Sequence record: PZ168832.1
Length of the DNA stretch: 64,000 bases
Strand: one strand, 5' to 3'
DNA from: a phage
Below are positions 10,992 through 25,922 of this stretch, one piece after another; the stretch's first letter is position 1, and the number at the start of each line of letters is the position of its first letter. Under the pieces are notes generated by a model. That model saw only the letters and a program-made list of their open reading frames with translations. It ran no database searches and was not told where the DNA came from. The translations under genes were made by a program, and so were the position numbers.

Positions 10992-11023
10992 ATTTTCATC
11001 AAGACAAACAAGTGAGGCGAATT

Positions 11024-11341: not shown

Positions 11342-11556
11342 ATGCCGCGCTGGGTAAGCTGTCTTTCAACAAGCGCAACGAGTTGCGTATGGTGTCGCGC
11401 TTTCAACAAACGCATTTATCACTAATCAAGATTGCAAACAAGGCCTACTCTCTAAATTGTCCTGAAGAAGAATGGAAAGAATTGAATGAGCGTCGTAAAC
11501 AATTACAAAAGGCTGCGTTTAAGCTGCAGCAATATGCCATGGAGTATGCAAAATGA
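11338..11556 (+). CDS. Hypothetical protein
   Basis: ATGA overlap with upstream stop. Confidence 0.45.
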   Translation: MNAALGKLSFNKRNELRMVSRFQQTHLSLIKIANKAYSLNCPEEEWKELNERRKQLQKAAFKLQQYAMEYAK

Positions 11557-11936
11557 GAATGAAGCGTTGCCCTTACTGCCACGATGTAATGCACCTTCCA
11601 CACGAAGAGTTTGTGCAGCACATGACTAACTGTGATAAGAATCCTAAGAGCGAAAGCCAACTTGAAGAAAGAATGTTCTTGGTGTCATTCAAAGCTTCTG
11701 CTTATGAAGTGCAACGTTCTTACGGCGCACCAAGTACGATTTACTGCCCAACAACATTGAGAAGCGACATCGACTCAATTCAGCTTGCGGCCTGGATTAA
11801 CGTTAAGGAAGGAGTCACGCCGCACTTTATTGCGCGCCTCCAATCTCAGATTCTACAAATGAAGCGCGAATACAACCGTGACATAACTGAAGTGAAGGTG
11901 TTGTCTATCACGCCTATGAATAAGGAGTTGCCGTGA
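11553..11936 (+). CDS. Hypothetical protein with Cys/His cluster
   Basis: N-terminal CPYCHDVMHLPHEEFVQHMTNC. Confidence 0.5.
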   Translation: MRMKRCPYCHDVMHLPHEEFVQHMTNCDKNPKSESQLEERMFLVSFKASAYEVQRSYGAPSTIYCPTTLRSDIDSIQLAAWINVKEGVTPHFIARLQSQILQMKREYNRDITEVKVLSITPMNKELP

Positions 11937-12193
11937 ACAAGGGTCCGATGACGAAGTTGGCCGTTGCCGCGCGGAAGCTTCGACAAGCCGTTAATGGGTC
12001 GCGGCCCGTGGCGTTAACACTCGACGATGCAAAGGCACTGGTAGAGCTGCTCGACGAGCACAACCGACGCAAGAATCTGGAGAACACATTACGCTGGCGC
12101 GTTACTCCGAAAGGGCGGGAGAGCGAAAAGAAAGCTTACTTGCGGCGCAAACTAAGGTCGGTCGGCCTTCACGAAGAGGCGAAGAATATTTAA
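11933..12193 (+). CDS. Hypothetical protein
   Basis: TAAGGAG RBS 5 nt before a GTG start. Confidence 0.45.
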   Translation: MNKGPMTKLAVAARKLRQAVNGSRPVALTLDDAKALVELLDEHNRRKNLENTLRWRVTPKGRESEKKAYLRRKLRSVGLHEEAKNI

Positions 12194-12198
12194 TTCAA

Positions 12199-12230
12199 AA
12201 AGGTGAGCTAAATGCTTGCCTTTTTATTTG
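12199..12230 (+). terminator. Rho-independent terminator (copy 2 of the duplicated element)
   Basis: Same hairpin sequence as 10946-10970, followed by TTTTTATTT. Confidence 0.55.
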
Positions 12231-12243
12231 CCTGTATTATACT
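12216..12243 (+). promoter_or_regulatory. Sigma70-like promoter overlapping the terminator tail
   Basis: TTGCCT (12216-12221), 16-nt spacer, TATACT (12238-12243). Confidence 0.35.
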
Positions 12244-12265
12244 TAGTTCATCAAGCAAAGGAGAA

Positions 12266-12574
12266 ATGATTATGAGTTACGACGAAAGGTTTGGCAGAAG
12301 CGGATTATTTCATGACGCTGTACACAAAGACAGCAAAGATGTTGTCTGCGCATTCAAGGTTGATTCTTACGGTACACTGAAACCTTTTAAGGTCGGCGAA
12401 ACATACAAGCTGTTTCACGGCTGGTTGACGCGTCGCAACAACTTGCCTGACGTGGAGGTGTGGTGGATAGAATACAAGGGTCAGGCTCATCGGTGCAAGG
12501 TTGTAGAGATGCACGGCGTCAAATACTATCAATCGATCATCAGCGGCTTTGTTTTTAAAGAGGGTGAGCTATGA
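12266..12574 (+). CDS. Hypothetical protein
   Basis: AAAGGAG RBS then ATG at 12266; the ORF-track N-terminus is a terminator artefact. Confidence 0.5.
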   Translation: MIMSYDERFGRSGLFHDAVHKDSKDVVCAFKVDSYGTLKPFKVGETYKLFHGWLTRRNNLPDVEVWWIEYKGQAHRCKVVEMHGVKYYQSIISGFVFKEGEL

Positions 12575-12876
12575 GTACAGAAGCGATGAAGAAAAAGATT
12601 TTGAACGCTTTGCAAGAAGGCGTGAACTGTGGTGCTATCAAAGAGTTTAATGAGGCGCAAGTCAGCGGAGAGAATGCAATAGGATTTAGTAATAATAAAG
12701 GCGGCATCGCCGCAATCCTTTTGTTAAACAACACCGATGATAAGTTTATACTTTACGTCGGAGGGTATGAGCTTGTTGTTGATGATTTATTCATCACTTG
12801 TGCCGACGGCCTTAACCCTATGTTGACATTTGAACGTTGCGGAATTCGTGTTGCAACGTTTGGAGGGAATTTATGA
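12571..12876 (+). CDS. Hypothetical protein
   Basis: ATGA overlap. Confidence 0.5.
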   Translation: MSTEAMKKKILNALQEGVNCGAIKEFNEAQVSGENAIGFSNNKGGIAAILLLNNTDDKFILYVGGYELVVDDLFITCADGLNPMLTFERCGIRVATFGGNL

Positions 12877-13058
12877 GTACCGAAGTCCATAACGCTTCAG
12901 CACTGGTGAGCTTTTACCGCAACAAAGGCGTGTCACTCGTTAAAACGCCGCAAGGCATGCTGTTCTTTGGCACGCGCTTCCTTAAGGCTTCGGAGCGTGA
13001 AACGCTGTCCAAGTTTGACCAGAAAACATTGCACGCAGTTTGGAGAAGACAACAATGA
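12873..13058 (+). CDS. Hypothetical protein
   Basis: GGAGGG RBS then ATG at 12873. Confidence 0.45.
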   Translation: MSTEVHNASALVSFYRNKGVSLVKTPQGMLFFGTRFLKASERETLSKFDQKTLHAVWRRQQ

Positions 13059-13291
13059 CATCCAATCTTAAAGCCCGTTTGTTATTCATCAAGCCGCATG
13101 TGCCTTATAAGATTAGTAAGCGCACCTGGCTTAACATTTACAACCGCAGCGGCGACCGTTGTTTGTACAAGGCAAAGCGACGCAAGAAGGTATATTTAAA
13201 GGCTGTGGTGTCGCATCCTGTTGATGCATTCCTCGTCGGCGAAAATGAATTATCAATCGGCTATCAAATTGAATTAGGAGTAAAGAAATGA
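13055..13291 (+). CDS. Hypothetical basic protein
   Basis: ATG at 13055 overlapping the upstream stop. Confidence 0.45.
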   Translation: MTSNLKARLLFIKPHVPYKISKRTWLNIYNRSGDRCLYKAKRRKKVYLKAVVSHPVDAFLVGENELSIGYQIELGVKK

Positions 13292-13614
13292 AAATCGAAC
13301 AACTCGAAGCATTATTGGAAATGGCTGTAAAGGCAGGCGCAATAAAAAGCTATCGCCGCGAGAAGTCTGACGATGCTGCGCACTTTTGTCGCAACTTCTA
13401 TATTGTCGGCAACCTTAACGACCACTACACCATCGAGTGGTATACTAATATGATGACGCTTAAGTCGCGCACCATGGAGCTTTGGTGCGATGACGTTTGT
13501 CTTTCTCATAGCCACCCGTGCTACGACGTTGCGCTTGGATTCTTTTACAAAAGCAACCAGCCAATCGCCCACATCGGAGAGAAGTACGACCACTTGAAGG
13601 AGAAGGTTGAATAA
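13288..13614 (+). CDS. Hypothetical protein
   Basis: ATGA overlap. Confidence 0.5.
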   Translation: MKIEQLEALLEMAVKAGAIKSYRREKSDDAAHFCRNFYIVGNLNDHYTIEWYTNMMTLKSRTMELWCDDVCLSHSHPCYDVALGFFYKSNQPIAHIGEKYDHLKEKVE

Positions 13615-13955
13615 TGGAAGAGCAAGAAGGTCGTGAGCTAACGTTCGACGAGCAAATGAAAGAGCTTCAGCGCACATCGCCGCTGCGCGGTAAGATTGTT
13701 GACATCGAGGCGAGCGAATCCAATCTCACCCAGTGGCGGCTCAAGTGCACCAGCACAAGCAAGGATATGTTAAGCTTCAAAGTCGGTCATACTTATTTGC
13801 TTTATGAGGCAAAAGGACTTATTATTGATGGAAGGCAAATTGTCTTCACCGTCGTCAACGGCATGCGTTGGTTCGTGAAGCGTGATGTCGAGGGCCGTGA
13901 CATGTTTGTCGCAGGCTTTCTAGAAACAAGATTCCAATTGGAGAAGGTTAAATGA
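13614..13955 (+). CDS. Hypothetical protein
   Basis: 113-aa ORF. Confidence 0.5.
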   Translation: MEEQEGRELTFDEQMKELQRTSPLRGKIVDIEASESNLTQWRLKCTSTSKDMLSFKVGHTYLLYEAKGLIIDGRQIVFTVVNGMRWFVKRDVEGRDMFVAGFLETRFQLEKVK

Positions 13956-14284
13956 AATTGAAATGGTATGTGGACCCTGAGCCGACAGGCCAATACAGGT
14001 CATTCCAACGTCGCGGCTGGCCGACTTGTTACAGCGGCAATCCCGATAAAGAAGACTGCGAGCTGCTTGCCGCTATCGTAAGCCTCGACCATCACGGCTA
14101 TGAAGGCCACTACGCGAGAGCAACCAACCTTCGGCTCAAGGTGCGCATCCATTTCAAGGTCGCAGGCGAGGACCGCACCGGACTCTCCAAGGAAGAGTTC
14201 AGCAGCATCGCCGACGCAAAGGCGTGGCTCAAGGCTTTCTATAAGAACAACCCTAAATTCTATCCAACTAAGGATGCATCATGA
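13952..14284 (+). CDS. Hypothetical protein
   Basis: ATGA overlap. Confidence 0.5.
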   Translation: MKLKWYVDPEPTGQYRSFQRRGWPTCYSGNPDKEDCELLAAIVSLDHHGYEGHYARATNLRLKVRIHFKVAGEDRTGLSKEEFSSIADAKAWLKAFYKNNPKFYPTKDAS

Positions 14285-14772
14285 CTAATAAAACTCAGCG
14301 CATCAAGTTCGAAGGCAAAGAATACAAAATAGACGTTCGTGCAAGATTCATTGCGCGCGATTCCAATGGCGGCATTTGGTTGTATGAGTCAAAACCTGTA
14401 TGGGAAGAGCGGCGCGGCCAGTGGTTGTACGAGACTTGTGGTTCGGTTTGGTGCGAGCGCATCGACCAAGTGAAGACGTTGAAAAAGAACCGACCAGCAT
14501 CACGAGATTCTCTGCAAGAAGTCGAATCAATCAAAATCCAAGACCCAGCAACGTCGACCGATAAACAATACGCAGTCGGGCAACGTGACATCGAGCAACT
14601 CGACGAGGGTGGCTATTATACGCGCCACATCTATGCCATGACTCATGAAGGACTTTACAGCAAGTCAGACATCGCCGCTGAACTGGCTCACCGTGACTTG
14701 CAAATTGACCTTCTCAAGATAGAAGTGCAAAACTTACGCAACACCCTGTTAAATACTTGGAGCTTAAAATGA
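14281..14772 (+). CDS. Hypothetical protein
   Basis: 163-aa ORF. Confidence 0.5.
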   Translation: MTNKTQRIKFEGKEYKIDVRARFIARDSNGGIWLYESKPVWEERRGQWLYETCGSVWCERIDQVKTLKKNRPASRDSLQEVESIKIQDPATSTDKQYAVGQRDIEQLDEGGYYTRHIYAMTHEGLYSKSDIAAELAHRDLQIDLLKIEVQNLRNTLLNTWSLK

Positions 14773-15194
14773 TACAACGTTACGACCTGACATATGATGT
14801 GGTATCAGAAGATTGCGCCATCACTCCCGTTCCAGAGAGTCATGAAGGACGTTTTGTTGAATATGAGGACTATGCTGCGCTGGAAGCGAAATATAGTGAA
14901 GCGCAACGCGAGTTGGTTGCATTACGCTCACAGGTCCGTGATGCGTCGGCGCTTGTTAAGCAGTTGCACGACGTCGTTGCTACTATAGGCGTGGATGATG
15001 ATGCACCGAAGGAGGAAGCGTGGACCGTGTGGCTTGGTGGAGATAATCCGGTGCCTGGGAAGATGGTTGAGTTTGAATTACTCAACGGTTATAAATCAAA
15101 AGCTGCCGTTCCTTCGGACAGTTTGACATGGGATAAAGTCACAAGCCCGACTGGTGCAAAGATTATTGCCTATCGGGTCGTTAAGGAGGGGTGA
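14769..15194 (+). CDS. Hypothetical protein
   Basis: ATG at 14769 overlapping the upstream stop. Confidence 0.5.
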   Translation: MIQRYDLTYDVVSEDCAITPVPESHEGRFVEYEDYAALEAKYSEAQRELVALRSQVRDASALVKQLHDVVATIGVDDDAPKEEAWTVWLGGDNPVPGKMVEFELLNGYKSKAAVPSDSLTWDKVTSPTGAKIIAYRVVKEG

Positions 15195-15643
15195 TGGGTA
15201 AAAAGCTTATCGCCGCTGGTTGGGCCATCCCGAAGTGGGCTCATCGTGCGCACTACTTTGATGAAGGAGAAGTGCAAAGCCTTTGTGGTCGCGCAACTTA
15301 TTTCGGTGATGAGCGCGTCAGCGGCGATTACATCGACTCGCTTTTAGGCAAAGGTGATTGCAAGAAATGTCAGGATATATTAAGAGATATTCTTACGCAA
15401 AGAGGATTGCTTGAGCTTGATGAATCGGAGGAAGTAATTGAACTTAAGCTTGAAGCGAATTACCTTATTTATACGTTCAAGAACTATTACGCAACTAATA
15501 TGCGCTCAAAAATGAGCGAGGAAGTAATAGAAAAGGTGTTCACCTACAATCCGCTAAGGATGAATAAAACTAAATTGAAGAAGTTTAATATAATGTTAAG
15601 GAAAGAATTTAAAAGGCTTGGAGTGAAGAATTTTATATTTTAA
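15194..15643 (+). CDS. Hypothetical protein
   Basis: AGGAGG RBS then ATG at 15194; last gene before a strong terminator. Confidence 0.5.
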   Translation: MGKKLIAAGWAIPKWAHRAHYFDEGEVQSLCGRATYFGDERVSGDYIDSLLGKGDCKKCQDILRDILTQRGLLELDESEEVIELKLEANYLIYTFKNYYATNMRSKMSEEVIEKVFTYNPLRMNKTKLKKFNIMLRKEFKRLGVKNFIF

Positions 15644-15660
15644 TAGTGATTAATGTTAAG

Positions 15661-15684
15661 AGGGCCGATTGGCCCTTTTTGTTT
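15661..15684 (+). terminator. Rho-independent terminator ending the plus-strand early array
   Basis: AGGGCC-GATT-GGCCCT hairpin followed by TTTTTGTTTG. Confidence 0.6.
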
Positions 15685-15798
15685 GCCTGTGGAATGTGAG
15701 GCTTTTGTGGTTATTTACGATTCAAGGCTGTAATTTAAGAGAGCGAAAATATTATAATAATTTATCAAGATTATTGCATATTGTGGCAATCAACGTTT

Positions 15799-16499
15799 AT
15801 ACGTATTTATGACAGTTTAATCCACTAAATAATACGGATAGAACAGTGAGGAAAATACAGCGGTGTATTTTAGTGTAAATATTGAATCAAAAATAAATAA
15901 TTATGGTGCTATTATATACGCAGATTGTTTGTAATTTATAGGATATTTTATCGTGGAGTATTGGCTAACGGTGCGTTAGCCGTGGGTCTTGGTGCTTGTG
16001 GTGTTGATGCTCAGAATTTTAATAATGTTTTAGTTTTAGTAATCGTAGTCAATGATGATACGTATAAGAAAATGAGAGTCACCCCTTCACAGGATATTGT
16101 ACCGTGGCCCTGTGGTGCGCCGCGCCTGGGATTGCTGGTATACACTGGTGCTATTTTGCCGCGAAGGCAGTCATTCATACGTATCATGACGTATCATTGG
16201 GCTATTGATTTATAAGGAAAAATACGCTGATACGGATGATACGGGTGCAAACATAATATATATAGAATTCCAGAAAATTAATTAACTCCATTTTGAATTA
16301 ATTTAAATTAATTTTTTTCTACATCCTCATACTTATACTAAACTTATATTTATACGTATCATCCGTAAGATATAAGTAAAAACAAAGACTTGCGGCAATA
16401 CGGATGATACGTCATGATACGCTTCAACCAGCCATCTGCGGCTAAGTCATTGATTTGCATAACAAGCGGCGAAAGGGATGGATTTCTTTTATACGTATC
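15799..16499. repeat. Iteron cluster A: 9-10-bp CGTATCATC / GATGATACG units in both orientations around an AT-rich core
   Basis: Units at about 16057-16065, 16176-16200, 16229-16245, 16353-16369, 16398-16422, 16491-16499; AT-rich core 16261-16316; 8-bp palindrome GGCTAACG..CGTTAGCC at 15962-15980. Confidence 0.6.
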
Positions 16500-16635
16500 A
16501 AACAGTACACCACGCACCACGGTCCGCAATCCACGCAGCATTATGATTTGTGTACATTTATAGCCATAATGAACATCAATCTGCACTTGAATATAATGTC
16601 CATCCATTGTATAATTCACACTATTAATTTGCACT

Positions 16636-17124
16636 ATGGGATTTTGCACTATGAGTCAAGACTATGTAGCGATGCCTGAAGACTTTGAAGACCCGCGATT
16701 TGCAGAGCACAATCAGGCTTTATTCGATGAGTTCATTGACCTTGTTATTCAGGGCCATGACATGCGCGCAGCTTTTGCACTAGTATTTGGAATGGAAGTT
16801 GCAACGGATAACTACACTGGACAGCGAATCCTTTGCGCGCAACGCAACCCATACTACAAAATGCGCTTCAAAAAGCGTATGGAAGAGATGCCACTCAAGG
16901 ATTTGTGGAGCGTAAAAGGTGCAATTCACAATTTGGTTAAGCTTGTGCGTGATCCAGAAGTCGCGGCGTCAGCCAAGCTTAATGCTATTCGCGAACTGAA
17001 TATCATCTACGGCATCACGATGATTGATGAAAACGGCAATAGTAAAATGGGCCGTTCCATGGACGATTTCTACAAGGATTTTGGAGAGGCAGCCAAAGAA
17101 GGCGAGCAATTCTCCCGCCACTAG
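16636..17124 (+). CDS. Terminase small-subunit-like DNA-binding protein (tentative)
   Basis: N-terminal FDEFIDLVIQGHDMRAAFALVFG and QRNPYYKMR resemble the small-terminase HTH pattern (F..EY..d.n...AA..AGYS ... LL.NP.V), by recall only. Alternative starts at 16651 and 16672. Confidence 0.4.
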   Translation: MGFCTMSQDYVAMPEDFEDPRFAEHNQALFDEFIDLVIQGHDMRAAFALVFGMEVATDNYTGQRILCAQRNPYYKMRFKKRMEEMPLKDLWSVKGAIHNLVKLVRDPEVAASAKLNAIRELNIIYGITMIDENGNSKMGRSMDDFYKDFGEAAKEGEQFSRH

Positions 17125-17142
17125 CCAATTTGCACTATAAAA

Positions 17143-17178
17143 CGGCCCTAGAACACATCTTCTCCACTTCTAGGGCCG
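17143..17178 (+). other. 11-bp perfect inverted repeat (stem-loop) just after the terminase-small-like gene
   Basis: CGGCCCTAGAA, 14-nt loop, TTCTAGGGCCG; no T-tract follows. Confidence 0.3.
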
Positions 17179-17523
17179 TCGGTAATACGACGGGGAAGGT
17201 TGCAACCGTAAACGCGTTAGAAAGTGTATTATTATAAGTCATCTTTTAGTCACCTTACGTAACAATTTACGACCTTCAGCCGTCCAATCGAACGACTCCA
17301 CCAGCAGATTCGCACTATAACCTAAGATGATGCGCCCTTTCTCGTTATCGACCCGCCAACAAGTCTCGAATAGCATTCGATTTGCACTATTAACTATCGC
17401 CGCAACGCGCGTAGGGTAAACGCAATTTGCACTATGGTCATAAAGGGATAAGGTGCGACCACTTCCGATGGACAACGTAGCGATGAGAATGAGCGTATTC
17501 ATAAGCCACCAATTTGCACTATG

Positions 17524-17546
17524 AAAAGCGACCCCGAAGGGCCGCC
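17524..17546 (-). terminator. Rho-independent terminator ending the minus-strand arm of the cassette
   Basis: On minus strand GGCGGCCC-TTCG-GGGTCGC (7-bp stem with one G-U, TTCG tetraloop) followed by TTTT. Confidence 0.45.
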
Positions 17547-17552
17547 ATTCGA

Positions 17553-18179
17553 TTAGATAATCTGGAAGGTGTAGGACTTGTTGCCGAACTCGAAGTTCAA
17601 GCGCCCAGCTTCCTTAAGCTTCATGCGGAAGCGAATATGTTTGCTATCCGGTAAGCCCAGCGCGGCGAACGCTACGCGGACCGATTTGAACTCTCCTACA
17701 CCCTCGACCATAACGCCGTTACGGGTAAGACGCTTTTGCGCCACTTCCTTATTATCCCAACTTTTTGCAATGCCTTCGCTATTCGAACGGCGATGGGAAG
17801 GAGTTCCGTTTTGCACTACGCAATTTGCACTATCGTTTAAACCGCTCTTAACGAAGGCTTCATACTCTTCGTCGGTCATCGCGTCGAGTTCTTCCTGCGT
17901 CGGCTCGGCCTTTTTAACGACCGCACGCGCCTTATGCGTTTTTACATCGCTGGACACTTCCTCGCGCGGCTTCGCGTCGGGGATGGGCGATTCGTTGGAC
18001 GGCTCATCGAGCGCGTTTAAGGACTCGATTAACGCGATTACGCGAGTCTCGGCGGTCCGGCGGTCCGAAAACTTCTTAATCGGTTTTGAGCCGGAATTTG
18101 CATTATAGAATGCAACGAGGTCGGCGGTCTTAGTTGCGATAACGTCGCCGCTAGTCGAGAAGCGATTTAAGCTAACCAT
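17553..18179 (-). CDS. Hypothetical protein (208 aa), cassette gene
   Basis: Strong third-position bias with abundant CGC/TCG/GCG/TTA codons unlike the rest of the window; the antisense ORF 17578..18108 is Ser-rich low complexity. Confidence 0.55.
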   Translation of the reverse strand: MVSLNRFSTSGDVIATKTADLVAFYNANSGSKPIKKFSDRRTAETRVIALIESLNALDEPSNESPIPDAKPREEVSSDVKTHKARAVVKKAEPTQEELDAMTDEEYEAFVKSGLNDSANCVVQNGTPSHRRSNSEGIAKSWDNKEVAQKRLTRNGVMVEGVGEFKSVRVAFAALGLPDSKHIRFRMKLKEAGRLNFEFGNKSYTFQII

Positions 18180-18259
18180 AATAAACTCCTATTTGTTAGG
18201 GCGCTAGGCGCGAAAGAATTTTATTAAAGCGCCGCGCACGACGCTCTAAAAATCCTCTC

Positions 18260-18544
18260 TTACGCTTCGACGAGGGAGAAGGTTTCAAATTCTTCTTCTC
18301 CCATAACGAGTAAAATATTCCCGATTTCGACCGCTTCGAAGAAGTATCCGTTAACGTTTACTTCGAATGATTCGCGGTCCGATTCCGGTAACGCCGCGTA
18401 AAGTTTAAAAGCCTCGGCGACCGTTACCCCACCCGCTTCAATAGTTTGATCTACGTTCGCGGCGTAGACTTCGGATAAATTTTGTTTTACGCCGTAGTTC
18501 TCGACGATAGCGTTACGGATAGAAGAAACGTTAAGAATAGCCAT
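18260..18544 (-). CDS. Small acidic protein, paralogue of 19176..19466
   Basis: Aligns by eye with 19176..19466: SIRNA/SAIRAA, LSEVYAANVDQTIE vs LESVYLSNVDATIE, VNVNGYFFEAVEIG vs VTINGFVYTITEIG. Confidence 0.55.
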   Translation of the reverse strand: MAILNVSSIRNAIVENYGVKQNLSEVYAANVDQTIEAGGVTVAEAFKLYAALPESDRESFEVNVNGYFFEAVEIGNILLVMGEEEFETFSLVEA

Positions 18545-18612
18545 TTTAAACTCCTAGTTGGGATAGGCGTTAACGACCTATTCGTTAACTCATCCCGTCC
18601 CGATATGAGTAC

Positions 18613-18640
18613 ATTATAATATAGTGTAGAAAAAAGTAAA
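18613..18640 (-). promoter_or_regulatory. Cassette promoter P1 (sigma70-like)
   Basis: On minus strand TTTACT, 16-nt spacer, TATAAT, followed by a conserved TATCGGGACGGG block. Confidence 0.5.
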
Positions 18641-18684
18641 GCACTTTTTCGATAAAAATGCGATAAATTATTTTATCTTTTTTC

Positions 18685-18712
18685 TTTACTTCTTCGTACA
18701 CTCGCGTATACT
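18685..18712 (+). promoter_or_regulatory. Cassette promoter P2 (sigma70-like)
   Basis: TTTACT (18685-18690), 16-nt spacer, TATACT (18707-18712), then conserved GTTTATATCGAGACGG. Confidence 0.5.
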
Positions 18713-18767
18713 TGTTTATATCGAGACGGGCGATGGCCTTTCTTCTACTAGCATCGGGAGCTTTATT

Positions 18768-19070
18768 ATGACTACTTTGATCTCTTCCATCCTTACTTAC
18801 GACGAAGACCGCTTAACCGTTCGCTCTCTTATCGCCGCCGTTAACGCGGAACTAGAATCTAGCGCCATTAAGGTCCGCGCGGTCGCCTTCATCGGCCTTT
18901 CCTTCGACGATATGAAGTACGCCGAACGTAGCGCCATCCGCTTCACGAAGACCGACGACGAAGCCGTTACCCTTATCGAGACGGTTACGCCGCGCGACGA
19001 AGCGTTAATTATCATCGAGTATATCGATATAGAAGGTGATAAAGCTTATAAATATTTTATCGCAAAATAA
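18768..19070 (+). CDS. Small acidic protein (100 aa), cassette gene
   Basis: ORF with GGGAG RBS; same codon bias as the other cassette genes. Confidence 0.55.
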   Translation: MTTLISSILTYDEDRLTVRSLIAAVNAELESSAIKVRAVAFIGLSFDDMKYAERSAIRFTKTDDEAVTLIETVTPRDEALIIIEYIDIEGDKAYKYFIAK

Positions 19071-19081
19071 CGAAAAATTGC

Positions 19082-19110
19082 TTTACTTATTCGTACACTA
19101 AGACTATAAT
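19082..19110 (+). promoter_or_regulatory. Cassette promoter P3 (sigma70-like)
   Basis: TTTACT (19082-19087), 17-nt spacer, TATAAT (19105-19110), then conserved GTTTATATCGAGAGGG. Confidence 0.55.
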
Positions 19111-19175
19111 GTTTATATCGAGAGGGATGAGGAAGCGAATAGGTCGCTACCCTCCCGACTAACTAGGAGAATATT

Positions 19176-19466
19176 ATGATTACTTTATCCGCTATCCGCG
19201 CCGCTCGCGTCGAAACTTCCGAAAACTCTAATGTATTTGGCGAAACCTTAGAGAGCGTTTATCTCTCTAACGTAGACGCGACTATCGAGTCTATTTATGA
19301 ACCGATCAACTTCCTCGACCTTTACAAGTATCGCGACGAGGACGTAGCATCCTACCGCGTAACGATTAACGGCTTCGTCTATACGATTACCGAAATCGGC
19401 GGCGAATATCTCGCGATCCCGCAACTCGGCGGAGAAGTGACTTATTTTAAAATCGTAAGCCTTTAA
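19176..19466 (+). CDS. Small acidic protein, paralogue of 18260..18544
   Basis: See alignment under 18260..18544; TAGGAG RBS. Confidence 0.55.
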   Translation: MITLSAIRAARVETSENSNVFGETLESVYLSNVDATIESIYEPINFLDLYKYRDEDVASYRVTINGFVYTITEIGGEYLAIPQLGGEVTYFKIVSL

Positions 19467-19477
19467 GGAGAAGAAAA

Positions 19478-19687
19478 ATGACTAATATGAATAACTCTCT
19501 TAACGCGCGCGCCCATCGTACCGCCGTCATCGATATGTTCCGCGAACTTAAGGAATTATGCGATAATATGAACGCGATGTTATCCATCGGCGGCTGGGGA
19601 TACGAAGAAGAGGTTAAATACGCGGTTATGCGTCGTAAGCGCGATAACGTCCTGGGACAAATTAAACGCGCCGGATTATTCCTTTAA
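19478..19687 (+). CDS. Small hypothetical protein (69 aa), cassette gene
   Basis: GGAGAAG RBS then ATG; followed by a terminator. Confidence 0.45.
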   Translation: MTNMNNSLNARAHRTAVIDMFRELKELCDNMNAMLSIGGWGYEEEVKYAVMRRKRDNVLGQIKRAGLFL

Positions 19688-19713
19688 TTATAATTACCCA
19701 CCGTTACTAATAG

Positions 19714-19739
19714 GCCGCGCTTAGTCGCGGCTTTTCTTC
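19714..19739 (+). terminator. Rho-independent terminator ending the plus-strand arm of the cassette
   Basis: GCCGCG-CTTAGT-CGCGGC hairpin followed by TTTTCTTCG. Confidence 0.55.
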
Positions 19740-19857
19740 GTCCCTATTTCGATGCGCTTCTCCGCGAAAACTCCTTTATCCTTCCCTTCGTCGTCGCATA
19801 ATCTTCTTCGAGATGCTCCTTAGTTCGCATAACAGGTATTACGTTAAATGGAGAACA

Positions 19858-19931
19858 TCGCGTAAGTCCTTGTTTTATATAGACACCTATATCGGACCGT
19901 TAGGGCGGGTCGCGTAAGTCGTTGTTTTATA
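19858..19931 (+). repeat. Direct repeat pair TCGCGTAAGTC(C/G)TTGTTTTATA
   Basis: Copies at 19858-19879 and 19910-19931, 52 bp apart, in a non-coding stretch. Confidence 0.5.
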
Positions 19932-20056
19932 AAGGCGCAAAACTTTCCCTTCGTTCCGAACTAAAACGAGGAATATGCCGACCCTTCGTCCGAAAATAGT
20001 ACGCATGCGAAATTACATGCATCTAGAATAATCCCCACCGATATTATCCTACACGC

Positions 20057-20120
20057 AATCATTCGCTTTCGAATCATTATGCTTCATATTGTTATGCGTC
20101 AAATCATTCGCTTTCGAATT
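20057..20120 (+). repeat. Direct repeat pair of an internally palindromic unit AATCATTCGCTTTCGAAT
   Basis: Copies at 20057-20075 and 20102-20120; each contains the inverted repeat ATTCG..CGAAT. Confidence 0.5.
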
Positions 20121-20391
20121 GTAACGCTGGAAACTGTAACGGCTATTGATTATTGCGTTCGTGTGGTTTTTATGGCATGGGTCTTTTGGTGCGTTTTGGT
20201 ACTTGATGGAATTTGCGGTACACTAATCAAAATACGACACATTTGGTCCACTAACTTTTCAAAGAAAAAGTCCCAGACAGTACCGTACTATTTTGTACCC
20301 ACAGTAAATTTGCAGTACACTCCTGCGCGGCAGGCAAAATAAAGGGCCGCCACAGCGACCCACGATTCACGGTTAAATCAACAAGCACCCA

Positions 20392-20772
20392 CTATTCACT
20401 CTTATGGGCATCACCAAAGCCATCCGCAATCTGGCTGATCAGCGATTCAATGGACACAGTTTTACCAATTGATCGAGCGGTAATAGCAAGCATATTATCA
20501 ATCAAACCATGATTGGATGCATATGATCCAGGTTTTGAATCATCTTCAGAACAACCAAAAAGCTGGTCGCGCAGACTTTCAAGAGAACGCTCAATATTTT
20601 CCAACTTCTCTTCTAAATCGGATTGGCGACGTAAAACCCACGTCAAGTCACGGTTGCCAACTTCCAATCCATCAGAATAGCAAGGTGGAGCGTCAATTTT
20701 GATGCTGGAACCAAAAGCAATGCCGCTGCCTTTAGTATATGTGTGACTCATAGAATCATTTTTATTTGACAT
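20392..20772 (-). CDS. Hypothetical protein downstream of the tail fibre (possible fibre assembly factor)
   Basis: AAGGT RBS then ATG at 20772 (track start 20838 is TTG). Confidence 0.45.
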   Translation of the reverse strand: MSNKNDSMSHTYTKGSGIAFGSSIKIDAPPCYSDGLEVGNRDLTWVLRRQSDLEEKLENIERSLESLRDQLFGCSEDDSKPGSYASNHGLIDNMLAITARSIGKTVSIESLISQIADGFGDAHKSE

Positions 20773-20847
20773 ATCGTTACCTTCAATATTTGGGTGATTA
20801 ACAATAAGTATAATAAAGCCGCATAGCGCGGCATTCAAATCGATTTA

Positions 20848-21096
20848 TTAATTGTGACGATTGGATTCATCAATCGATACCAATTGTGCAGGGTCGCCGG
20901 ATACAGTTGCGCCGATGATGCCCATCTGAGAGAAAAATTCTGAATAAACTTCCTTCCAGTACTTACGCGCTGCTTTCTGGGCTTGTCCTTTGCGCTTGAA
21001 GCTTTTGCCTTGAAAGATGAAACGGTCTTTTGGCGCGGAATACTCCACCACACCTTCCAGCCATTGTAAGAATGCTACTGATTCATTTTGATTCAT
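20848..21096 (-). CDS. Hypothetical protein
   Basis: GAGGA RBS 5 nt before the ATG. Confidence 0.5.
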   Translation of the reverse strand: MNQNESVAFLQWLEGVVEYSAPKDRFIFQGKSFKRKGQAQKAARKYWKEVYSEFFSQMGIIGATVSGDPAQLVSIDESNRHN

Positions 21097-21103
21097 ATAA
21101 TCC

Positions 21104-21505
21104 TCAATATTTTAATAAGAAAGCGCCCAACCAACTTTCCTCAATCTCGCGGCCAGTAGCCACACGGTCGGTCTTTGCTATGGGTCTGGATTCGCCGCAG
21201 GGTAATCCGTCTTGTAGCTGTGTACTATTGCCAATTCTCACCAAAACCTTTCCATCAGGGTCGATATAAGCGCGACAACCCATGATTTCGAGTCGCTGTA
21301 GACACTGGCGAATCGTTTTCAGCTTCTCACCGGACCGGATAGAGCGTGGTCGCGACCGCGACCGCTGACCGTTCTTATTCACTGTACGCTTGAAAACCGG
21401 AATATCATTGGTGCGTTGTGGCTTGGGTCGGTAGTAGGCTTCTTCACCAGGAGTTGCGCCTGGTGTCAGTTCGCGCTTAAGCGCCTTTTCGATATCGATG
21501 ATCAT
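21104..21505 (-). CDS. Hypothetical basic protein
   Basis: 133-aa ORF, Arg/Lys-rich; no clear RBS. Confidence 0.45.
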   Translation of the reverse strand: MIIDIEKALKRELTPGATPGEEAYYRPKPQRTNDIPVFKRTVNKNGQRSRSRPRSIRSGEKLKTIRQCLQRLEIMGCRAYIDPDGKVLVRIGNSTQLQDGLPCGESRPIAKTDRVATGREIEESWLGAFLLKY

Positions 21506-21506
21506 A

Positions 21507-21607
21507 ATTCATGCCGCAGCAGCATGGATGATTGCGTAAACAATTCCAAACAGGGCGACAACACAAACAGTGCCCCAAAATGCAAAGCGTCGTGACTCTT
21601 TATCCAT
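21507..21607 (-). CDS. Small hydrophobic peptide (32 aa)
   Basis: MDKESRRFAFWGTVCVVALFGIVYAIIHAAAA, bridging two genes with overlapping start and stop. Confidence 0.25.
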
Positions 21608-21809
21608 TGTCCACCGCCCCAATATCAGTTAAGAACTCGTGCAACGCGCCTTTCTTATTGAGTCTTTGCATAGTTTTGATATCATCAAGCGATATACTCT
21701 GATCACTTTGCTGTTTATCTATGCAGACAAGGCCGCCTTTCTTAGCCTTGATTGTCATGCCTTTGGCTTCAATACTTTTTACGAAATCGGACAATAATTT
21801 AATTTCCAT
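21600..21809 (-). CDS. Hypothetical protein
   Basis: GAGGTG RBS then ATG at 21809. Confidence 0.45.
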   Translation of the reverse strand: MEIKLLSDFVKSIEAKGMTIKAKKGGLVCIDKQQSDQSISLDDIKTMQRLNKKGALHEFLTDIGAVDNG

Positions 21810-21890
21810 AATACACCTCACTTGTTAACGTATAATGAGTATAACTTAATAGCCCATAAAGTAAAGGCGCTTTTCAGCGCCTTGAGTGAA

Positions 21891-24248
21891 TTATTTCGCT
21901 GCTTTCAGCGCGGCTATCTCTGCCTTGAGTTCATCTATCTGATCCATCAATGCAAGAATAGCCTCGTGGTGCAGTGCTGCTGCTACACCTGGTGTGTTGA
22001 CAGATTTTATGTTATCCAACGTCGAACCGTCGCGCAGAGTAACAGGCGATGACTGTGTTTCAGATACTGCTTCAGGAAAGTCTTTCTCTACATCCTGGGC
22101 GATGAAGCCAAAACCGACGGAGCCATTAGTTTCCAGAGTCCATGCCACGCCTCTGATGTTGCGCATCTTGACAAGTGGATCAGTGATCCGCTCAATGTTA
22201 CTTTTAATACGTTCATCAGATATACTCCGCCACTCCTGACACCTTGCTATTCCATCGGAGCCAAAAAGATAAGAGGCCGCGCCGCCTGTCCCGCTGTAAA
22301 CGTTCAATTGCGCGCGGTCCAGCGTGGTCGTGCTACTCCTTATGCCTCCGAGAATCCAGCTTCCACTGTACCAGTCACCGCTGATTGAGTTTACAAAATT
22401 TCCTTCTGGAACGTTGGCATAGTTTTGAATCCTTATGGCGTTGTTTTCTGCAGCAGCAACGCCTACTGAATTAACTGGGGATGCAACAAGGTCTTTAGAC
22501 CGGATATATGCATCAACAACTATTGTCCCATCAGGGCGCAGAGTTCCAATCTGGGATGTGGAATTCGGCAACACCAATTTGCCATCTTGGTTAAATGCCC
22601 ACTCTTGCACCCCATTAGATATCACAGCACCTTGTTCAGACGTCAATCCATCAATTTTGCCGTATGCCTGCAAGAATGCTTGATACGCGATGTTCGTGCC
22701 AATCTTATATTCAGATTTTACACTACCGCCTCTGACAAGCATTCCGGCTGCAGGTTTTACTGCGTCGCCGTTAATCACACTCCAAGAAGTATTCGCGGCA
22801 ACAAATCCACCCGATGCACGAATCACCCAAACGCCAACAAAGTTGCGACCCATGATTTCGTCAGTTGCCGCTCCATAAATCGGGCTTGATCTGGATGCAT
22901 CAATATTTATTGTATTGAGACGCCCCTCTACTGCCCCGCTTCCAACAGGTATGGTGTCGCCAGCGCCTTGGGGGTACAAATCGTTGTTTGTGTAAAAAGC
23001 ACCTCGGACGGCTGTGCCAAAGATTTGCGCATAAGTGCCTGCCGATACACCAGCGGCTGAGCCTGTGATGTTTGGTGCAGCAGATTCAAATATTTGACCG
23101 TTCGCAGTGGAGTTGCCGCCATCACCGCGCCCGTAAAGCGCCCGTACAGAGCCTGTCTGAACACCGTTAAGGTCTGGGACACGGAATGTCGTTGTGCCGT
23201 TACCTGAAGAATATTTTGCACGTTTGAACTTATCCGCAAGCCAGTCGGCATCTGCGATGGGCGAAAGCATTTGCGCATACGCCCAAAGTTCAGGCCAGTC
23301 AGCACGGTTTAGCAATTGCCCGTCTGCAACGACTTCGTATGGCTGAATATATGATCTACTATTGCGAAGATGGAAATCGCCAACACCATAGTTCATGACG
23401 CCGTTCATACTTGGACCAACGGTGCCTGTGTTTACTAAGTTTTCAACCCAACGCTTAGTCGCGGCATCATAATCATTTACAGGGTCGCCAGCGAGCGGCG
23501 TTGATCCTTGTGGACGGATGTTTAGCCACGCCTGAGCATTATCTGCAGAGCCTGTGCCGCCCATTGAAGTTGGAACGATGCTCTGATCAGCAACAGGGCC
23601 GAATCCAAAAGCAGACTTCATCCCTTGGATGGTAGTTTGCCCTGTGCCGCCGTTGGCGACTGGGATGACAGATTTACTGTTGTATAATTGCGCCCATTGA
23701 CTCCAAACCCCATTTACCGCGTTGTAAGTCCTTTGGTATGTAACATTGTTGTAATATGTTGAGTATCTTTGGACGCAACTTTCTATTGATGGTCCAGTTT
23801 TTAGGACTTCAAGGACTCCTGCTTGTGAAACTGGGTAATTAAGAACAGTCTGAGCATCTGCATTGAAGTCTTGGAAATAATTTCCAAACCAAGAGCCTGT
23901 CAGAAAGTTGAGATTTATCCCAGAAGGAAGTTTGCCATAATTTCTTACAACCCCTGTTAAGGTCGCAGCAGTGTTACGAATAGAAAGCATGTCACCAGCA
24001 GACCATGCACGCGCTGCCGTACCTTCTTGTGCGCGCTGCACGGTCAGGACGTCTCCAACCACGGCTGTCACTGTGACAATTTCGAATTGGCGGCCTGTTG
24101 CAGCGTCGACGATTGTCGCCACTACACGCTCGTTCGCGCCCAAGGTCGGAAATCCCGACCCTGAGCGAATTGTGATTGTGGTGTCTGAAGTCGTCGTTGG
24201 TTGAGCCAGCGCGACCTCAAAGTTGTTTTTGAATATTAGCCTTGGCAT
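21891..24248 (-). CDS. Tail fibre / tailspike protein with C-terminal intramolecular chaperone (peptidase S74-like) domain
   Basis: 785 aa; Gly/Ser/Thr-rich beta-type body; collar-like FRVPDLNGVQ...GRG; C-terminus SDERIKSNIERI ... GFIAQDVEKDFPEAV ... ALMDQIDELKAEIAALKAAK typical of auto-cleaving chaperone domains; GAGGA RBS. Confidence 0.75.
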   Translation of the reverse strand: MPRLIFKNNFEVALAQPTTTSDTTITIRSGSGFPTLGANERVVATIVDAATGRQFEIVTVTAVVGDVLTVQRAQEGTAARAWSAGDMLSIRNTAATLTGVVRNYGKLPSGINLNFLTGSWFGNYFQDFNADAQTVLNYPVSQAGVLEVLKTGPSIESCVQRYSTYYNNVTYQRTYNAVNGVWSQWAQLYNSKSVIPVANGGTGQTTIQGMKSAFGFGPVADQSIVPTSMGGTGSADNAQAWLNIRPQGSTPLAGDPVNDYDAATKRWVENLVNTGTVGPSMNGVMNYGVGDFHLRNSRSYIQPYEVVADGQLLNRADWPELWAYAQMLSPIADADWLADKFKRAKYSSGNGTTTFRVPDLNGVQTGSVRALYGRGDGGNSTANGQIFESAAPNITGSAAGVSAGTYAQIFGTAVRGAFYTNNDLYPQGAGDTIPVGSGAVEGRLNTINIDASRSSPIYGAATDEIMGRNFVGVWVIRASGGFVAANTSWSVINGDAVKPAAGMLVRGGSVKSEYKIGTNIAYQAFLQAYGKIDGLTSEQGAVISNGVQEWAFNQDGKLVLPNSTSQIGTLRPDGTIVVDAYIRSKDLVASPVNSVGVAAAENNAIRIQNYANVPEGNFVNSISGDWYSGSWILGGIRSSTTTLDRAQLNVYSGTGGAASYLFGSDGIARCQEWRSISDERIKSNIERITDPLVKMRNIRGVAWTLETNGSVGFGFIAQDVEKDFPEAVSETQSSPVTLRDGSTLDNIKSVNTPGVAAALHHEAILALMDQIDELKAEIAALKAAK

Positions 24249-24286
24249 TTTACGGTCCTCGTTTTGTCGACAACCGTATTATAACC

Positions 24287-24628
24287 TTAATTTCTTTTGA
24301 GAGGAATATGACGGTGGCTGCCATTATTTGGTTTAATAATGAGCATAAAAACGATTAGAAAGATGATGGCTGATATACTTAATTCAATCAGCGCGGCTTG
24401 AGATATGGATTGGTCTTCGTGATACTGCTTTTGCATTTCCGCTTTCTTCTGAGCGCAAACTTCAGGTGATATATAATCGCCTTTTGAGTTGCCATAATAA
24501 ATCTCGCCATTCTCAGAAATAAGTCTGCCGCAAATATCAGTTTCAGCCTTTGCGCTTGACATCATAATGACGGTGCCGATGATAGCGGCAATTGTCCAGA
24601 TTAGCAGTTGTGATAAAGTGTTGTTCAT
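24287..24628 (-). CDS. Membrane/secreted protein (N-terminal signal or anchor, C-terminal TM)
   Basis: AAAGAGG RBS then ATG at 24628; MNNTLSQLLIWTIAAIIGTVIMMSSAKA ... AALIELSISAIIFLIVFMLII. Confidence 0.45.
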   Translation of the reverse strand: MNNTLSQLLIWTIAAIIGTVIMMSSAKAETDICGRLISENGEIYYGNSKGDYISPEVCAQKKAEMQKQYHEDQSISQAALIELSISAIIFLIVFMLIIKPNNGSHRHIPLKRN

Positions 24629-24824
24629 GATGACCTCTTTAAATTCCCTTCCCACATCGGGAAGGGTGAATATTATTTTAAACGAAAGAATAGGCGCGTG
24701 CCACACAGAGAGTCCCAACGGCCTTCGCCGTCCCATATCGAACCAACGCCAGCAGTGATTGGGCCAGCAGAATTGGCGGCATTGGCCCAAGCGAGACGTT
24801 TCAACTTCCAACTGCACCAACGAT

Positions 24825-25058
24825 TCACAGTTCACCTCCAGATTGCAAAACAAGTCCCGCATAGAGGATTGCTAAAGCTAAAGGCGCACCACTTCCAGCT
24901 TCTCTATTCTCTTTGATTTGAAGAGTGTCCTTAAGGAATTGCAGCTGAACGTTGAATTCATTTTCAATTCCAAGCACTCCAGCTAATTCTTTTACAGAAT
25001 CTGCATATGCCTTGTCTAGCACTTCTTTTGGTACTGTTAAAGTCAATTCATTTGCCAT
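24825..25058 (-). CDS. Hypothetical protein
   Basis: In-frame ATG at 25058 (track start is GTG). Confidence 0.4.
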   Translation of the reverse strand: MANELTLTVPKEVLDKAYADSVKELAGVLGIENEFNVQLQFLKDTLQIKENREAGSGAPLALAILYAGLVLQSGGEL

Positions 25059-25269
25059 TTTCTTTCCACTCCACAAATGTGCTGCCACTTGTTTCTCTAT
25101 TTAGCAGGTATCTGCCGCGCATTCCATGAAGGCTGAATTCAACCGTCGATGGATTAGATTTTGAAAGCCACATCGCTTGACCGTCGAATGGTCCGCCAAC
25201 GCATGTGTATTTGGCTTTTGGCTCACTCCTTTTGGGCCGTTTTGCCCGCTCTTTGATTGATAGTCTCAT
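25048..25269 (-). CDS. Hypothetical basic protein
   Basis: 73-aa ORF with ATG. Confidence 0.4.
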   Translation of the reverse strand: MRLSIKERAKRPKRSEPKAKYTCVGGPFDGQAMWLSKSNPSTVEFSLHGMRGRYLLNRETSGSTFVEWKENGK

Positions 25270-25484
25270 CAGTCTTCACCTTGAGATTCAAGACAAGTAA
25301 GAACAAGCCATGTCATCGGAAGAATCAAAACCAGAGAAATAAGGGACCAGATGGACCAGCACAAGATGACAGACTTGAATGTGTGAACGTCGCCAAACGC
25401 AGCAGTGAAACAAAATCCCATCACGAAAGCAAGCGCGGTGGAGTGGTTATCAATGGCTTTGATGGCACGGTCGATGAGTTTCAT
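25269..25484 (-). CDS. Two-TM small membrane protein (holin-like candidate)
   Basis: GGAGG RBS 5 nt before ATG; two hydrophobic segments TALAFVMGFCFTAAFG and VILCWSIWSLISLVLILPMTWLVLTCL. Confidence 0.45.
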   Translation of the reverse strand: MKLIDRAIKAIDNHSTALAFVMGFCFTAAFGDVHTFKSVILCWSIWSLISLVLILPMTWLVLTCLESQGED

Positions 25485-25573
25485 ATTACCTCCGGTTTTG
25501 AGTTAATATGATTATAACGCAGAGCTTCAGAAAGGCAAACTTTTTGTGAATTTATGCCGTCCATGGCAAATGA

Positions 25574-25804
25574 TTAGTGAGAAGACACGACTAATGTGCC
25601 GCTTCCTTTCGCGAAAATCTCAACACCTGGCGGGATTGTGACCGTGCCAACCACTGCGATTCCGATCAACTTGTCATCGGCTTTTTCTTCGAAACAGATC
25701 TCTGCGGCACCGCCGCGAACTTGAATAAGTGCGCCTGATACGTTTTCAGCAACAGAAAGAACGGAAGTGTAAGATGGAGTGAGTTGAATATTTACTAGGG
25801 CCAT
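25574..25804 (-). CDS. Hypothetical protein
   Basis: AGGAG RBS 7 nt before ATG. Confidence 0.4.
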   Translation of the reverse strand: MALVNIQLTPSYTSVLSVAENVSGALIQVRGGAAEICFEEKADDKLIGIAVVGTVTIPPGVEIFAKGSGTLVVSSH

Positions 25805-25818
25805 GATTTACTCCTGAT

Positions 25819-25845
25819 AAAAAAATGGCCAGAAAGAATCTGGCC
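25819..25845 (-). terminator. Rho-independent terminator on the minus strand, directly upstream of the RBS of 25574..25804
   Basis: On minus strand GGCCAGA-TTCTT-TCTGGCC followed by ATTTTTTT. Confidence 0.4.
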
Positions 25846-25922
25846 GAAAAGATCACCCTTTATCCACTACTAAGCTGGAATCATAATTTTACTTGATATA
25901 GCTGTCGCAAGCAAACTATAAT

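Follow-up and report, generated by a model that had tools for sequence, protein, structure and literature searches.

The 64,000-nucleotide stretch of phage DNA analyzed here (sequence record PZ168832.1; hereafter the window) carries, at positions 17,524 to 19,739, a cassette of small genes that an earlier note had described as a self-contained unit with its own promoters and terminators. A total of 29 phage records matched the region at 93-96% identity, all of them Wifcevirus, and the window itself is Wifcevirus, a group of ~68-kb myophages of E. coli and Shigella that includes WFC, WFH, ECML-117, Mansfield, and Bas98-101. Five open reading frames on two divergent arms were confirmed at the locus, flanked on both sides by terminators that are also annotated in phage WFC. 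The unit is not self-contained, however: it forms the variable core of a larger module that is conserved in the terminal repeats of Wifcevirus and related enterobacterial myophages, and its DNA has been almost entirely purged of the dinucleotide step CA/TG. The features at the center of the analysis are as follows:

16290..20187, no strand: direct terminal repeat (DTR), enclosing the entire cassette, from blastn against the Mansfield repeat
17524..17550, minus strand: intrinsic terminator of the leftward arm (-18 kcal/mol, z = -4.2; WFC annotation)
17553..18179, minus strand: g208, conserved basic protein of 208 amino acids with two folded domains; partly purged
17900..19740, no strand: core of the CA/TG-purged island, with partial purge over 17250-17900 and 19740-20000
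18260..18544, minus strand: g94, 94 amino acids, acidic (isoelectric point, pI, 4.05), a g96 paralogue; replaced or absent in some Wifcevirus genomes
18613..18640, minus strand: promoter P3, TTTACT-16-TATAAT, predicted to drive g94 and g208
18685..18712, plus strand: promoter P1, TTTACT-16-TATACT, predicted to drive g100; near-identical promoter in metagenomic contig L012
18768..19070, plus strand: g100, 100 amino acids, acidic (pI 4.58); homologues only in contigs L012 and L014
19082..19110, plus strand: promoter P2, TTTACT-17-TATAAT, predicted to drive g96 and g69
19176..19466, plus strand: g96, 96 amino acids, acidic (pI 4.23), a very small family; alpha+beta fold without an informative match
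19478..19687, plus strand: g69, 69 amino acids, basic accessory gene (phrog_10377) found in a subset of Wifcevirus; homologues in Klebsiella Webervirus
19712..19733, plus strand: intrinsic terminator of the rightward arm (8-bp stem and U-tract, -12.7 kcal/mol; WFC annotation)

The cassette had been reported as enriched in CGC, TCG, GCG, and TTA codons and in CpG. The CGC, GCG, and TTA codons were indeed enriched; the TCG codon was not (0.14 as compared to 0.12), though the TCG trinucleotide was 2.3-fold enriched. CpG stood at an observed/expected ratio (o/e) of 2.05 in the cassette as compared to 1.14 for the window; among 2.1-kb sliding windows across the 64 kb, those richest in CpG overlapped the cassette without exception. 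This excess is secondary; the primary anomaly is the depletion of CA/TG. Measured as symmetrized dinucleotide odds, CA/TG o/e was 0.44 over 17239-20000 and 0.27-0.39 over 18000-19700, as compared to 1.18 ± 0.07 (minimum 0.93) in the rest of the window. Within the island, CG rose to ~2.0 and TA from 0.67 to ~1.2, which compensates for the loss of CA/TG, and G+C content was unchanged (46.7% as compared to 46.3%). Trinucleotides containing CA or TG occurred at 0.22-0.30 of background with two exceptions: CAG/CTG, the most depleted word, was reduced 20-fold (0.05 of background), and ATG/CAT was retained at 0.6, a milder depletion because Met is needed. Once the ban was allowed for, no other trinucleotide deviated and no further context dependence was found; among tetranucleotides it was mainly GATC that was low. 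When islands were pooled (window 17900-19740; locus L006 2950-4650; L012 5500-7050; L014 1750-3200), GATC occurred at 0.23 of its Markov expectation, and GAAC/GTTC and CTAG at ~0.5. The island was rich in TCGA, CGCG, TTAA, and GTTAAC.

CA and TG were depleted to the same extent on the sense strand of either arm, whatever the codon phase, and intergenic pieces were depleted as well (CA/TG o/e 0.21-0.43). The constraint therefore acts on duplex DNA rather than on mRNA or codons, and a cause at the mRNA or codon level was rejected. Six genes together held 113 CA/TG steps where 242 ± 10 were expected from synonymous resampling with the phage's own codon usage (z = -12.4), and in the small genes most of the surviving steps lay in unavoidable Met, Trp, Cys, His, or Gln codons. 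The purge was strong enough that the encoded proteins avoid these five amino acids: in the acidic island proteins, pooled over lineages, the five made up 25 of 1,237 residues (2.0%), against a background of 10.5% (P = 2e-31). Among five Wifcevirus genomes, 27 CA/TG-creating substitutions were counted in the island core where 52.5 ± 5.6 were expected, whereas the left part of the repeat showed no such shortfall; selection against CA/TG thus appears, from these comparisons, to be ongoing in the island. The purge was centered on the promoters and faded through g208. Past the rightward terminator, the DNA at 19740-20000 was still CA/TG-poor.

Both the purge and the architecture of the locus are common to five lineages: Wifcevirus, Myosmarvirus, Kylevirus, and the metagenomic contigs L012 and L014, the last two reached through two true homologues of g96. 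In Myosmarvirus (Serratia phages SMP and MyoSmar), CA/TG o/e in the island was 0.12-0.33; in Pantoea phage Kyle it was 0.18-0.5, alongside four TTTACT promoters and a 3.6-kb repeat. The most extreme case was L012 5927-7053, where 1,127 bp contained only four CA/TG steps, three of them ATG starts and one in a promoter spacer, and where the two encoded acidic proteins lacked internal Met, Trp, Cys, His, and Gln altogether. No island was found in 15 loci of relatives whose G+C was 0.54-0.66, Pbunavirus and XcP1 among them, and the feature was restricted to phages of Enterobacterales.

Atypical codon usage had led the earlier note to propose that the cassette was acquired horizontally, its odd composition being the signature of a donor that had not yet been ameliorated. 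The composition of the cassette is the most deviant in the window, its gene content differs among strains, and the nearest outside homologues of g69 reside in Klebsiella Webervirus, all of which would fit such an origin. However, the purge belongs to the locus and not to its genes. The g69 homologue in Webervirus (KP36) is CA/TG-rich (o/e 1.44), whereas the copy here (0.51) retains 13 CA/TG steps, 10 of them unavoidable, where 30 were expected; since almost only unavoidable steps remain, g69 has been adapted to its location. Serratia phage SMP carries two g208-like genes, one inside its island (0.22) and one outside (1.06). Homologues of g208 in Pbunavirus and XcP1 ranged from 1.0 to 1.2; a core gene of vertical descent thus shows the purge in the window and in the island of SMP, while its Pbunavirus homologues and the second SMP copy do not. 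The WFC gene that replaces g94 was equally purged (0.23). Genes at the locus are thus purged whatever their family, as are the intergenic DNA and promoters, G+C equals that of the remainder of the genome, and the purge has been kept in five lineages; we also know of no genome with a CA/TG o/e of ~0.1-0.3 that could have served as donor. A donor of unusual composition thus fails to account for the bias, and we consider such an origin highly improbable.

The three copies of one sigma70-type promoter that had been proposed to drive the cassette were recovered. The pattern TTTACT-N6-TACAC-N5/6-TATAMT occurred exactly three times in 64 kb, all in the cassette, against an expectation of zero (none in 100 shuffles), and all three copies shared the leader ATATCGRGA(C)GG. 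Inverted repeats I1 and I2 indicated that the promoter, 5' untranslated region, and gene of g94/g96 were duplicated jointly as one inverted unit. The promoter type was conserved across E. coli, Pantoea, and metagenomic lineages; a scan of IMG/VR for the promoter word returned Wifcevirus only, plus three chance matches without islands. Between the divergent promoters P3 and P1, at 18659-18676, lies GCGATAAATTATTTTATC, which resembles the H-NS high-affinity motif tCGATAAATT. The words TTAACG/CGTTAA were 6- to 9-fold enriched in the island.

The promoters bear on one account of the ban, namely control of expression noise. The -35 hexamer TTTACT is TTGACA minus its TG and CA, and a purge of NTG, which covers all start codons, of its complement CAN, and of TTGACA-like -35 and TG-extended -10 sequences would leave only the intended promoters and starts active on either strand, giving very fast and clean early expression. 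The TG steps that survive in 1.1 kb of L012, confined to starts and a promoter spacer, agree with this account, as do a 2.3-fold enrichment of TAA and TAG and the very short infection cycle reported in the literature. Yet the enrichment in TA makes more -10-like sequences, not fewer, and the purge extends to non-transcribed DNA past the terminators. Where selection against spurious initiation has been measured, it has proved weak, and such a force would be unlikely to drive five amino acids out of proteins. To our knowledge, other very fast phages show no such purge. We regard noise control as a very unlikely cause.

The location of the cassette followed from the repeat of phage Mansfield, where the DTR (positions 1-3673; 3,673 bp) was called by PhageTerm and then mapped onto the window by blastn. 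The DTR is ~3.9 kb long in the window and ~3.7 kb in WFC and WFH. The order of the module is genome left end, terS, Chi sites among an array of the motif ATTTGCACTAT, g208, the divergent TTTACT/TATAAT promoters, and the small acidic proteins. Its further features, in the window and then in relatives, are:

16627..18106, plus strand: array of nine copies of the 11-nt motif ATTTGCACTAT, all on the plus strand (9 as compared to 1.8 expected)
16636..17124, plus strand: terS, small terminase subunit-like gene (annotated terS in Mansfield; phrog_4783), with normal CA/TG o/e of 1.25
17239..17502, minus strand: g87, basic open reading frame of 87 amino acids, conserved in position and weakly depleted in CA/TG
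17298..17305, minus strand: Chi site (CCACCAGC on the plus strand), active for RecBCD from the left genome end
19858..20137, plus strand: non-coding repeats by the right DTR boundary (25-nt repeat twice, at 19858 and 19910; 36-nt repeat three times, at 20057-20137)
L012 4096-5333, L006 1616-2794, L041 255-1972, and L014 792 and 1272: Chi arrays in relatives, oriented to act on RecBCD from the left end
L012 4168-5132 and L041 (Kyle) 580-1476: ranges of ATTTGCACTAT in relatives

The single perfect Chi site of the window is accompanied by a near-Chi sequence, CCACTAGC, at 17118. Relatives carried two to nine Chi sites in the same place and the same orientation: counts of GCTGGTGG were nine in 2 kb of Kyle, six in L012, five in SMP, and two in L014, where ~0.03 would be expected per 2 kb. 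In every island-bearing lineage the Chi arrays lay on the terS side and stopped where the purge begins, with none on the other side. Such an excess in the orientation active from the near end is what characterizes the terminal Chi clusters documented for P1 and LLS-type lambdoid phages, in which many Chi octamers of the same orientation lie near the genome end or terminal redundancy of enterobacterial phages. The array described here differs in being short (one to nine sites in at most 2 kb), in occurring in virulent myophages with exact terminal repeats, and in abutting a CA/TG-free island. That Pbunavirus relatives carry the same feature with a Chi of their own was considered and rejected; neither an island nor a GCTGGCGC cluster was present. 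The ATTTGCACTAT copies were interspersed with Chi, flanking terS and running antisense through g87 and g208, and the ~50%-identical relative L012 had exact copies, often right beside Chi sites. The motif is possibly a terminase or RecBCD-related site; a sigma54 promoter was rejected on inspection, the -24 element being absent.

Chi in the active orientation directly upstream of the purge in all five lineages raises an alternative in which the repeat is a recombination substrate. RecBCD entering at the left end and activated by Chi would load RecA on the island, and the strand would invade the other copy of the repeat, circularizing the genome or starting recombination-dependent replication, as has been proposed for P1 and Chi-rich lambdoid phages, which have documented terminal Chi clusters. 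The composition of the island would then serve invasion, or protect both strands from the RecB nuclease, and would not be an anti-defense trait; a dinucleotide ban on both strands could be the outcome of a strand-specific cleavage preference if the repeat were attacked from both ends. RecA, however, prefers GT-rich DNA, and a TG-free tail is therefore a poorer substrate. We know of no TG/CA sequence preference of the RecBCD nuclease. Moreover, the Wifcevirus window has a single Chi site, and recombination leaves the promoters, the acidic genes, and the restriction phenotype unexplained. We judge it unlikely as the basis of the ban. A desert of primase sites (5'-CTG) leaving single-stranded ends was rejected outright, given that the purge reaches neither end of the repeat.

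Both boundaries of the DTR are rich in repeats. At the left boundary (16290), the region at 15650-16630 is AT-rich (G+C 0.33-0.37), non-coding, and dense in direct and inverted ACGTATCA/TGATACGT repeats; it is a candidate terminase-cut, injection-stop, or origin region. Just inside the right boundary lie the 25-nt direct repeats (TCGCGTAAGTCSTTGTTTTATAWAG; 19858-19934) and the 36-nt repeats. The repeats at these boundaries are at most suggestive of an injection stop signal such as accompanies two-step DNA transfer in T5.

Wifcevirus is resistant to every restriction system tested except EcoP1_I, according to its published phenotype. The distribution of sites in the repeat matches that phenotype, as a correlation only. 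Both the DTR of the window (16290-20187) and that of Bas99 (L004 8822-12500) had zero sites for EcoRI, EcoRV, EcoKI, EcoAI, EcoBI, EcoR124I, and PstI, and zero copies of CACAG. Of the systems tested, EcoP1I (AGACC) alone had sites there, five in the window and six in Bas99. A single EcoP15I site was present in the DTR. We take CACAG to be the site of EcoCFT_II; its count of 92 in Bas99 agrees with the S2 table.

These counts could reflect cumulative avoidance of the motifs of many host restriction, BREX, and DISARM systems, a dinucleotide purge pre-empting many specificities at once. Many enterobacterial adenine-methylating Type I, IIG, and III systems would, on this account, read words containing CAG/CTG or TG/CA. 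The 20-fold loss of CAG/CTG, a DTR free of EcoKI, EcoAI, EcoBI, PstI, and CACAG sites with one for EcoP15I, and the confinement of the feature to phages of Enterobacterales all point in this direction. Against it, by our count CA/TG occurs in only ~65% of a set of Type I motifs and in 25% of palindromic hexamers, the island is rich in TCGA, CGCG, TTAA, and GTTAAC and keeps its EcoP1I sites, and a near-absolute dinucleotide ban is far costlier than removal of specific sites. We consider cumulative avoidance quite unlikely. Avoidance of CRISPR protospacer-adjacent motifs was rejected, AAG/CTT and CC/GG being normal.

Restriction resistance without a known mechanism might also arise from modified virion DNA. 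If TG/CA were modified, restriction would be resisted but host RNA polymerase hindered, and early genes would avoid the target. The genome encodes thymidylate-synthase-like, polynucleotide-kinase-like, MazG-like, and FabG-like enzymes, and enzymes of this kind occur in thymidine-hypermodification pathways. In Bas99, genes 0048-0050 (L003 39634-42061) are adjacent and encode the thymidylate-synthase-like, polynucleotide-kinase-like, and FabG-like reductase proteins, and gene 0036 (L003 30456-31079) encodes the MazG-like pyrophosphatase; no DNA modification has been reported for Wifcevirus phages. The recognition sequences GAATTC and GATATC contain neither TG nor CA, and TG/CA modification would therefore not explain resistance to EcoRI and EcoRV. 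Pbunavirus relatives have the same enzymes but no island, no DpdA, Mom, or methyltransferase gene is annotated, and DNA past the terminators is purged as well. There is accordingly little chance that avoidance of a modification underlies the ban.

The proteins themselves offered few clues to function. Three are small and acidic, as had been observed, and g208 and g69 are basic. The suspected paralogy of g94 and g96 held up in a direct comparison (BLASTP E = 2e-7, 34% identity over 82 amino acids). The earlier note had recognized no family for any of the five, which stands for g94, g96, and g100 but not for the other two: g69 matched phrog_10377, annotated as a transcriptional regulator (E = 1e-37), and g208 matched phrog_4730, annotated as of unknown function. 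Searches of the five cassette proteins against Pfam, NCBIfam, PADLOC, and PDB sequences returned zero family matches, none matched defense or anti-defense families, and Rfam covariance models over 15500-20500 gave zero matches at E ≤ 1. In Wifcevirus records the cassette genes are annotated as hypothetical, the 69-amino-acid gene occasionally as a transcriptional regulator. This gene, g69, occurred in only nine Escherichia records as compared to 308 Klebsiella phage records. By contrast, g208 was 98-100% identical in more than 100 contigs, saturating the search with near-identical Wifcevirus copies, and its homologues also occur in Pbunavirus; g208 is thus a conserved core gene, which makes the cassette accessory only in part. 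An AlphaFold2 model of g208 (predicted local distance difference test, pLDDT, 67) combined an N-terminal helical domain having weak SAP-like and Rho-N-like matches with a C-terminal alpha/beta domain having helix-turn-helix-like features, and suggests, with low confidence, that g208 may bind DNA. The model of g96 was a small alpha+beta protein (pLDDT 76) without an informative match, and an exhaustive search of 1.84 billion representative proteins found only the two true relatives of g96 noted above. The small acidic genes are swapped, gained, or lost among close relatives; in WFC an unrelated acidic gene of 104 amino acids stands in place of g94.

Taken with the location in the terminal repeat, these properties lead us to favor, at a probability of about 0.5, a T5-like module of first-expressed anti-defense genes in the leading terminal repeat, the DNA of which is itself under direct selection. 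The sequence of events would be as follows: DNA of the repeat would be the first exposed in the cell and would be transcribed by unmodified host RNA polymerase. The products (acidic g94, g96, and g100; g208; sometimes g69) would neutralize host defenses such as restriction and RecBCD, thereby protecting the remaining genome, which would become vulnerable later. Chi sites would shield the island from RecBCD entering at the left end, and restriction sites within the island would be costly. The CA/TG step would be purged from both strands and replaced by CG and TA. Direct selection on island DNA is proposed because the island must work while still unprotected. The earlier note had anticipated an early module read by host RNA polymerase with an anti-defense or host-takeover role, and the support for this is circumstantial: the position in the DTR, the three conserved sigma70-type promoters, the turnover of small acidic genes, and the distribution of restriction sites. 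What the data show directly is the anatomy of the module, its conservation, the locus-bound purge at the DNA level with its consequences for protein composition, the orientation of Chi, and the agreement of restriction sites with phenotype; we infer the early timing, the anti-defense function, the delayed entry of the remaining genome, and, above all, the agent of the ban.

As to that agent, a tentative possibility, which we consider less likely than not, is that the first-expressed genes are written in a restricted DNA alphabet, some activity reading or cutting bare CA/TG in the first seconds of infection. Our favored guess for the agent, a nuclease activity operating while only island DNA is in the cell, itself carries a low probability.

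The pre-early, first-step-transfer region of T5 is the closest parallel. It too is of odd composition and consists of small genes in a long direct terminal repeat; host-type promoters serve its divergent arms, and its inner boundary has repeats. T5 resists restriction despite sites elsewhere in its genome, being sensitive only where sites lie in the DNA that enters first, a protection attributed to functions of the early-injected region, and the remaining genome of the phages described here likewise carries sites. When T5 (L011, NC_005859) was compared over positions 1-9200 and 10300-30000, the former was enriched in CGC/GCG (3.9-fold) and CCG (2.4-fold), depleted in AGA/TCT (0.47-fold), and had no CAGAG as compared to 27; this skew hints that a stealth composition of the DNA that enters first may not be confined to the island described here. 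The repeat described here is 3.9 kb rather than 10 kb, however, and includes terS; no homologues of T5 dmp, A1, or A2 were found among the island proteins, whose family matches were limited to phrog_4730 and phrog_10377; and the two-step transfer of T5 is only a prediction for Wifcevirus. The host-takeover module of SPO1 similarly places small early genes with strong host-type promoters in a terminal repeat, though in another host and without sequence relationship, and no dinucleotide ban has been reported for SPO1. The anti-restriction proteins T7 gene 0.3 (Ocr), ArdA, and gp5.9 resemble g94, g96, and g100 in size (~100 amino acids) and charge (pI ~4), and Ocr-type mimics are encoded, as here, by the first genes behind strong host-type promoters at a genome end. 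The island proteins are highly acidic and small (pI 4.05-4.58), as expected of a DNA mimic; comparison of sequences and folds detected no resemblance to Ocr, ArdA, or other known mimics.

Several observations weigh against this T5-like module. The purge falls short of the whole DTR, of which the leftmost 1-1.6 kb and the final ~190 bp have normal CA/TG; being the first DNA to enter therefore does not by itself define the purge. The first-step-transfer DNA of T5 shows no depletion (CA/TG o/e 0.93), on which ground a CA/TG purge was rejected as a signature common to T5. Banning CA/TG would do away with only about one-quarter to one-half of the restriction motifs that are possible, which makes it an inefficient means of generic site avoidance. 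Finding no site for EcoRI, EcoRV, EcoKI, or EcoAI in 3.9 kb is not individually significant (~2.2 expected), and the window has only one perfect Chi site.

Viruses are known to avoid particular oligonucleotides, as in the avoidance of restriction sites and GATC by phages and the suppression of CpG and UpA in vertebrate RNA viruses. The island resembles these cases in a coding-independent selection on words, presumably evading a sequence-reading host factor, but its ban, which is directed at a DNA dinucleotide and is all but complete, covers only 1-3 kb instead of the whole genome and alters amino acid usage. Terminal repeats that carry early modules are familiar from T5 and SPO1, and terminal Chi clusters are likewise known. 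A literature search found no report of CA/TG depletion in phages and no description of a local, near-absolute dinucleotide ban that overrides protein composition.

Such a ban implies that a strong force acts on naked phage DNA as infection begins; this force could be a new specificity of a host nuclease or defense system. If the genes are indeed written in a restricted alphabet, the activity reading CA/TG could be that of the host or the phage's own activity that destroys host DNA, the island would be a natural negative image of its specificity, and T5 might offer another instance, the composition of its first-step-transfer DNA reflecting a different set of forbidden words. The old question of how the first-entering DNA of T5 survives while host DNA is destroyed could be answered by such a force as well. 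For Wifcevirus, the module offers a testable account of resistance to all tested restriction systems except EcoP1I. A CA/TG o/e below 0.4 beside oriented Chi may provide a genomic signature for pre-early anti-defense loci in phages, and g94, g96, g100, and g208 are candidates for broad anti-restriction or anti-RecBCD functions, which would be relevant to the therapeutic use of Wifcevirus and its Pbunavirus relatives.

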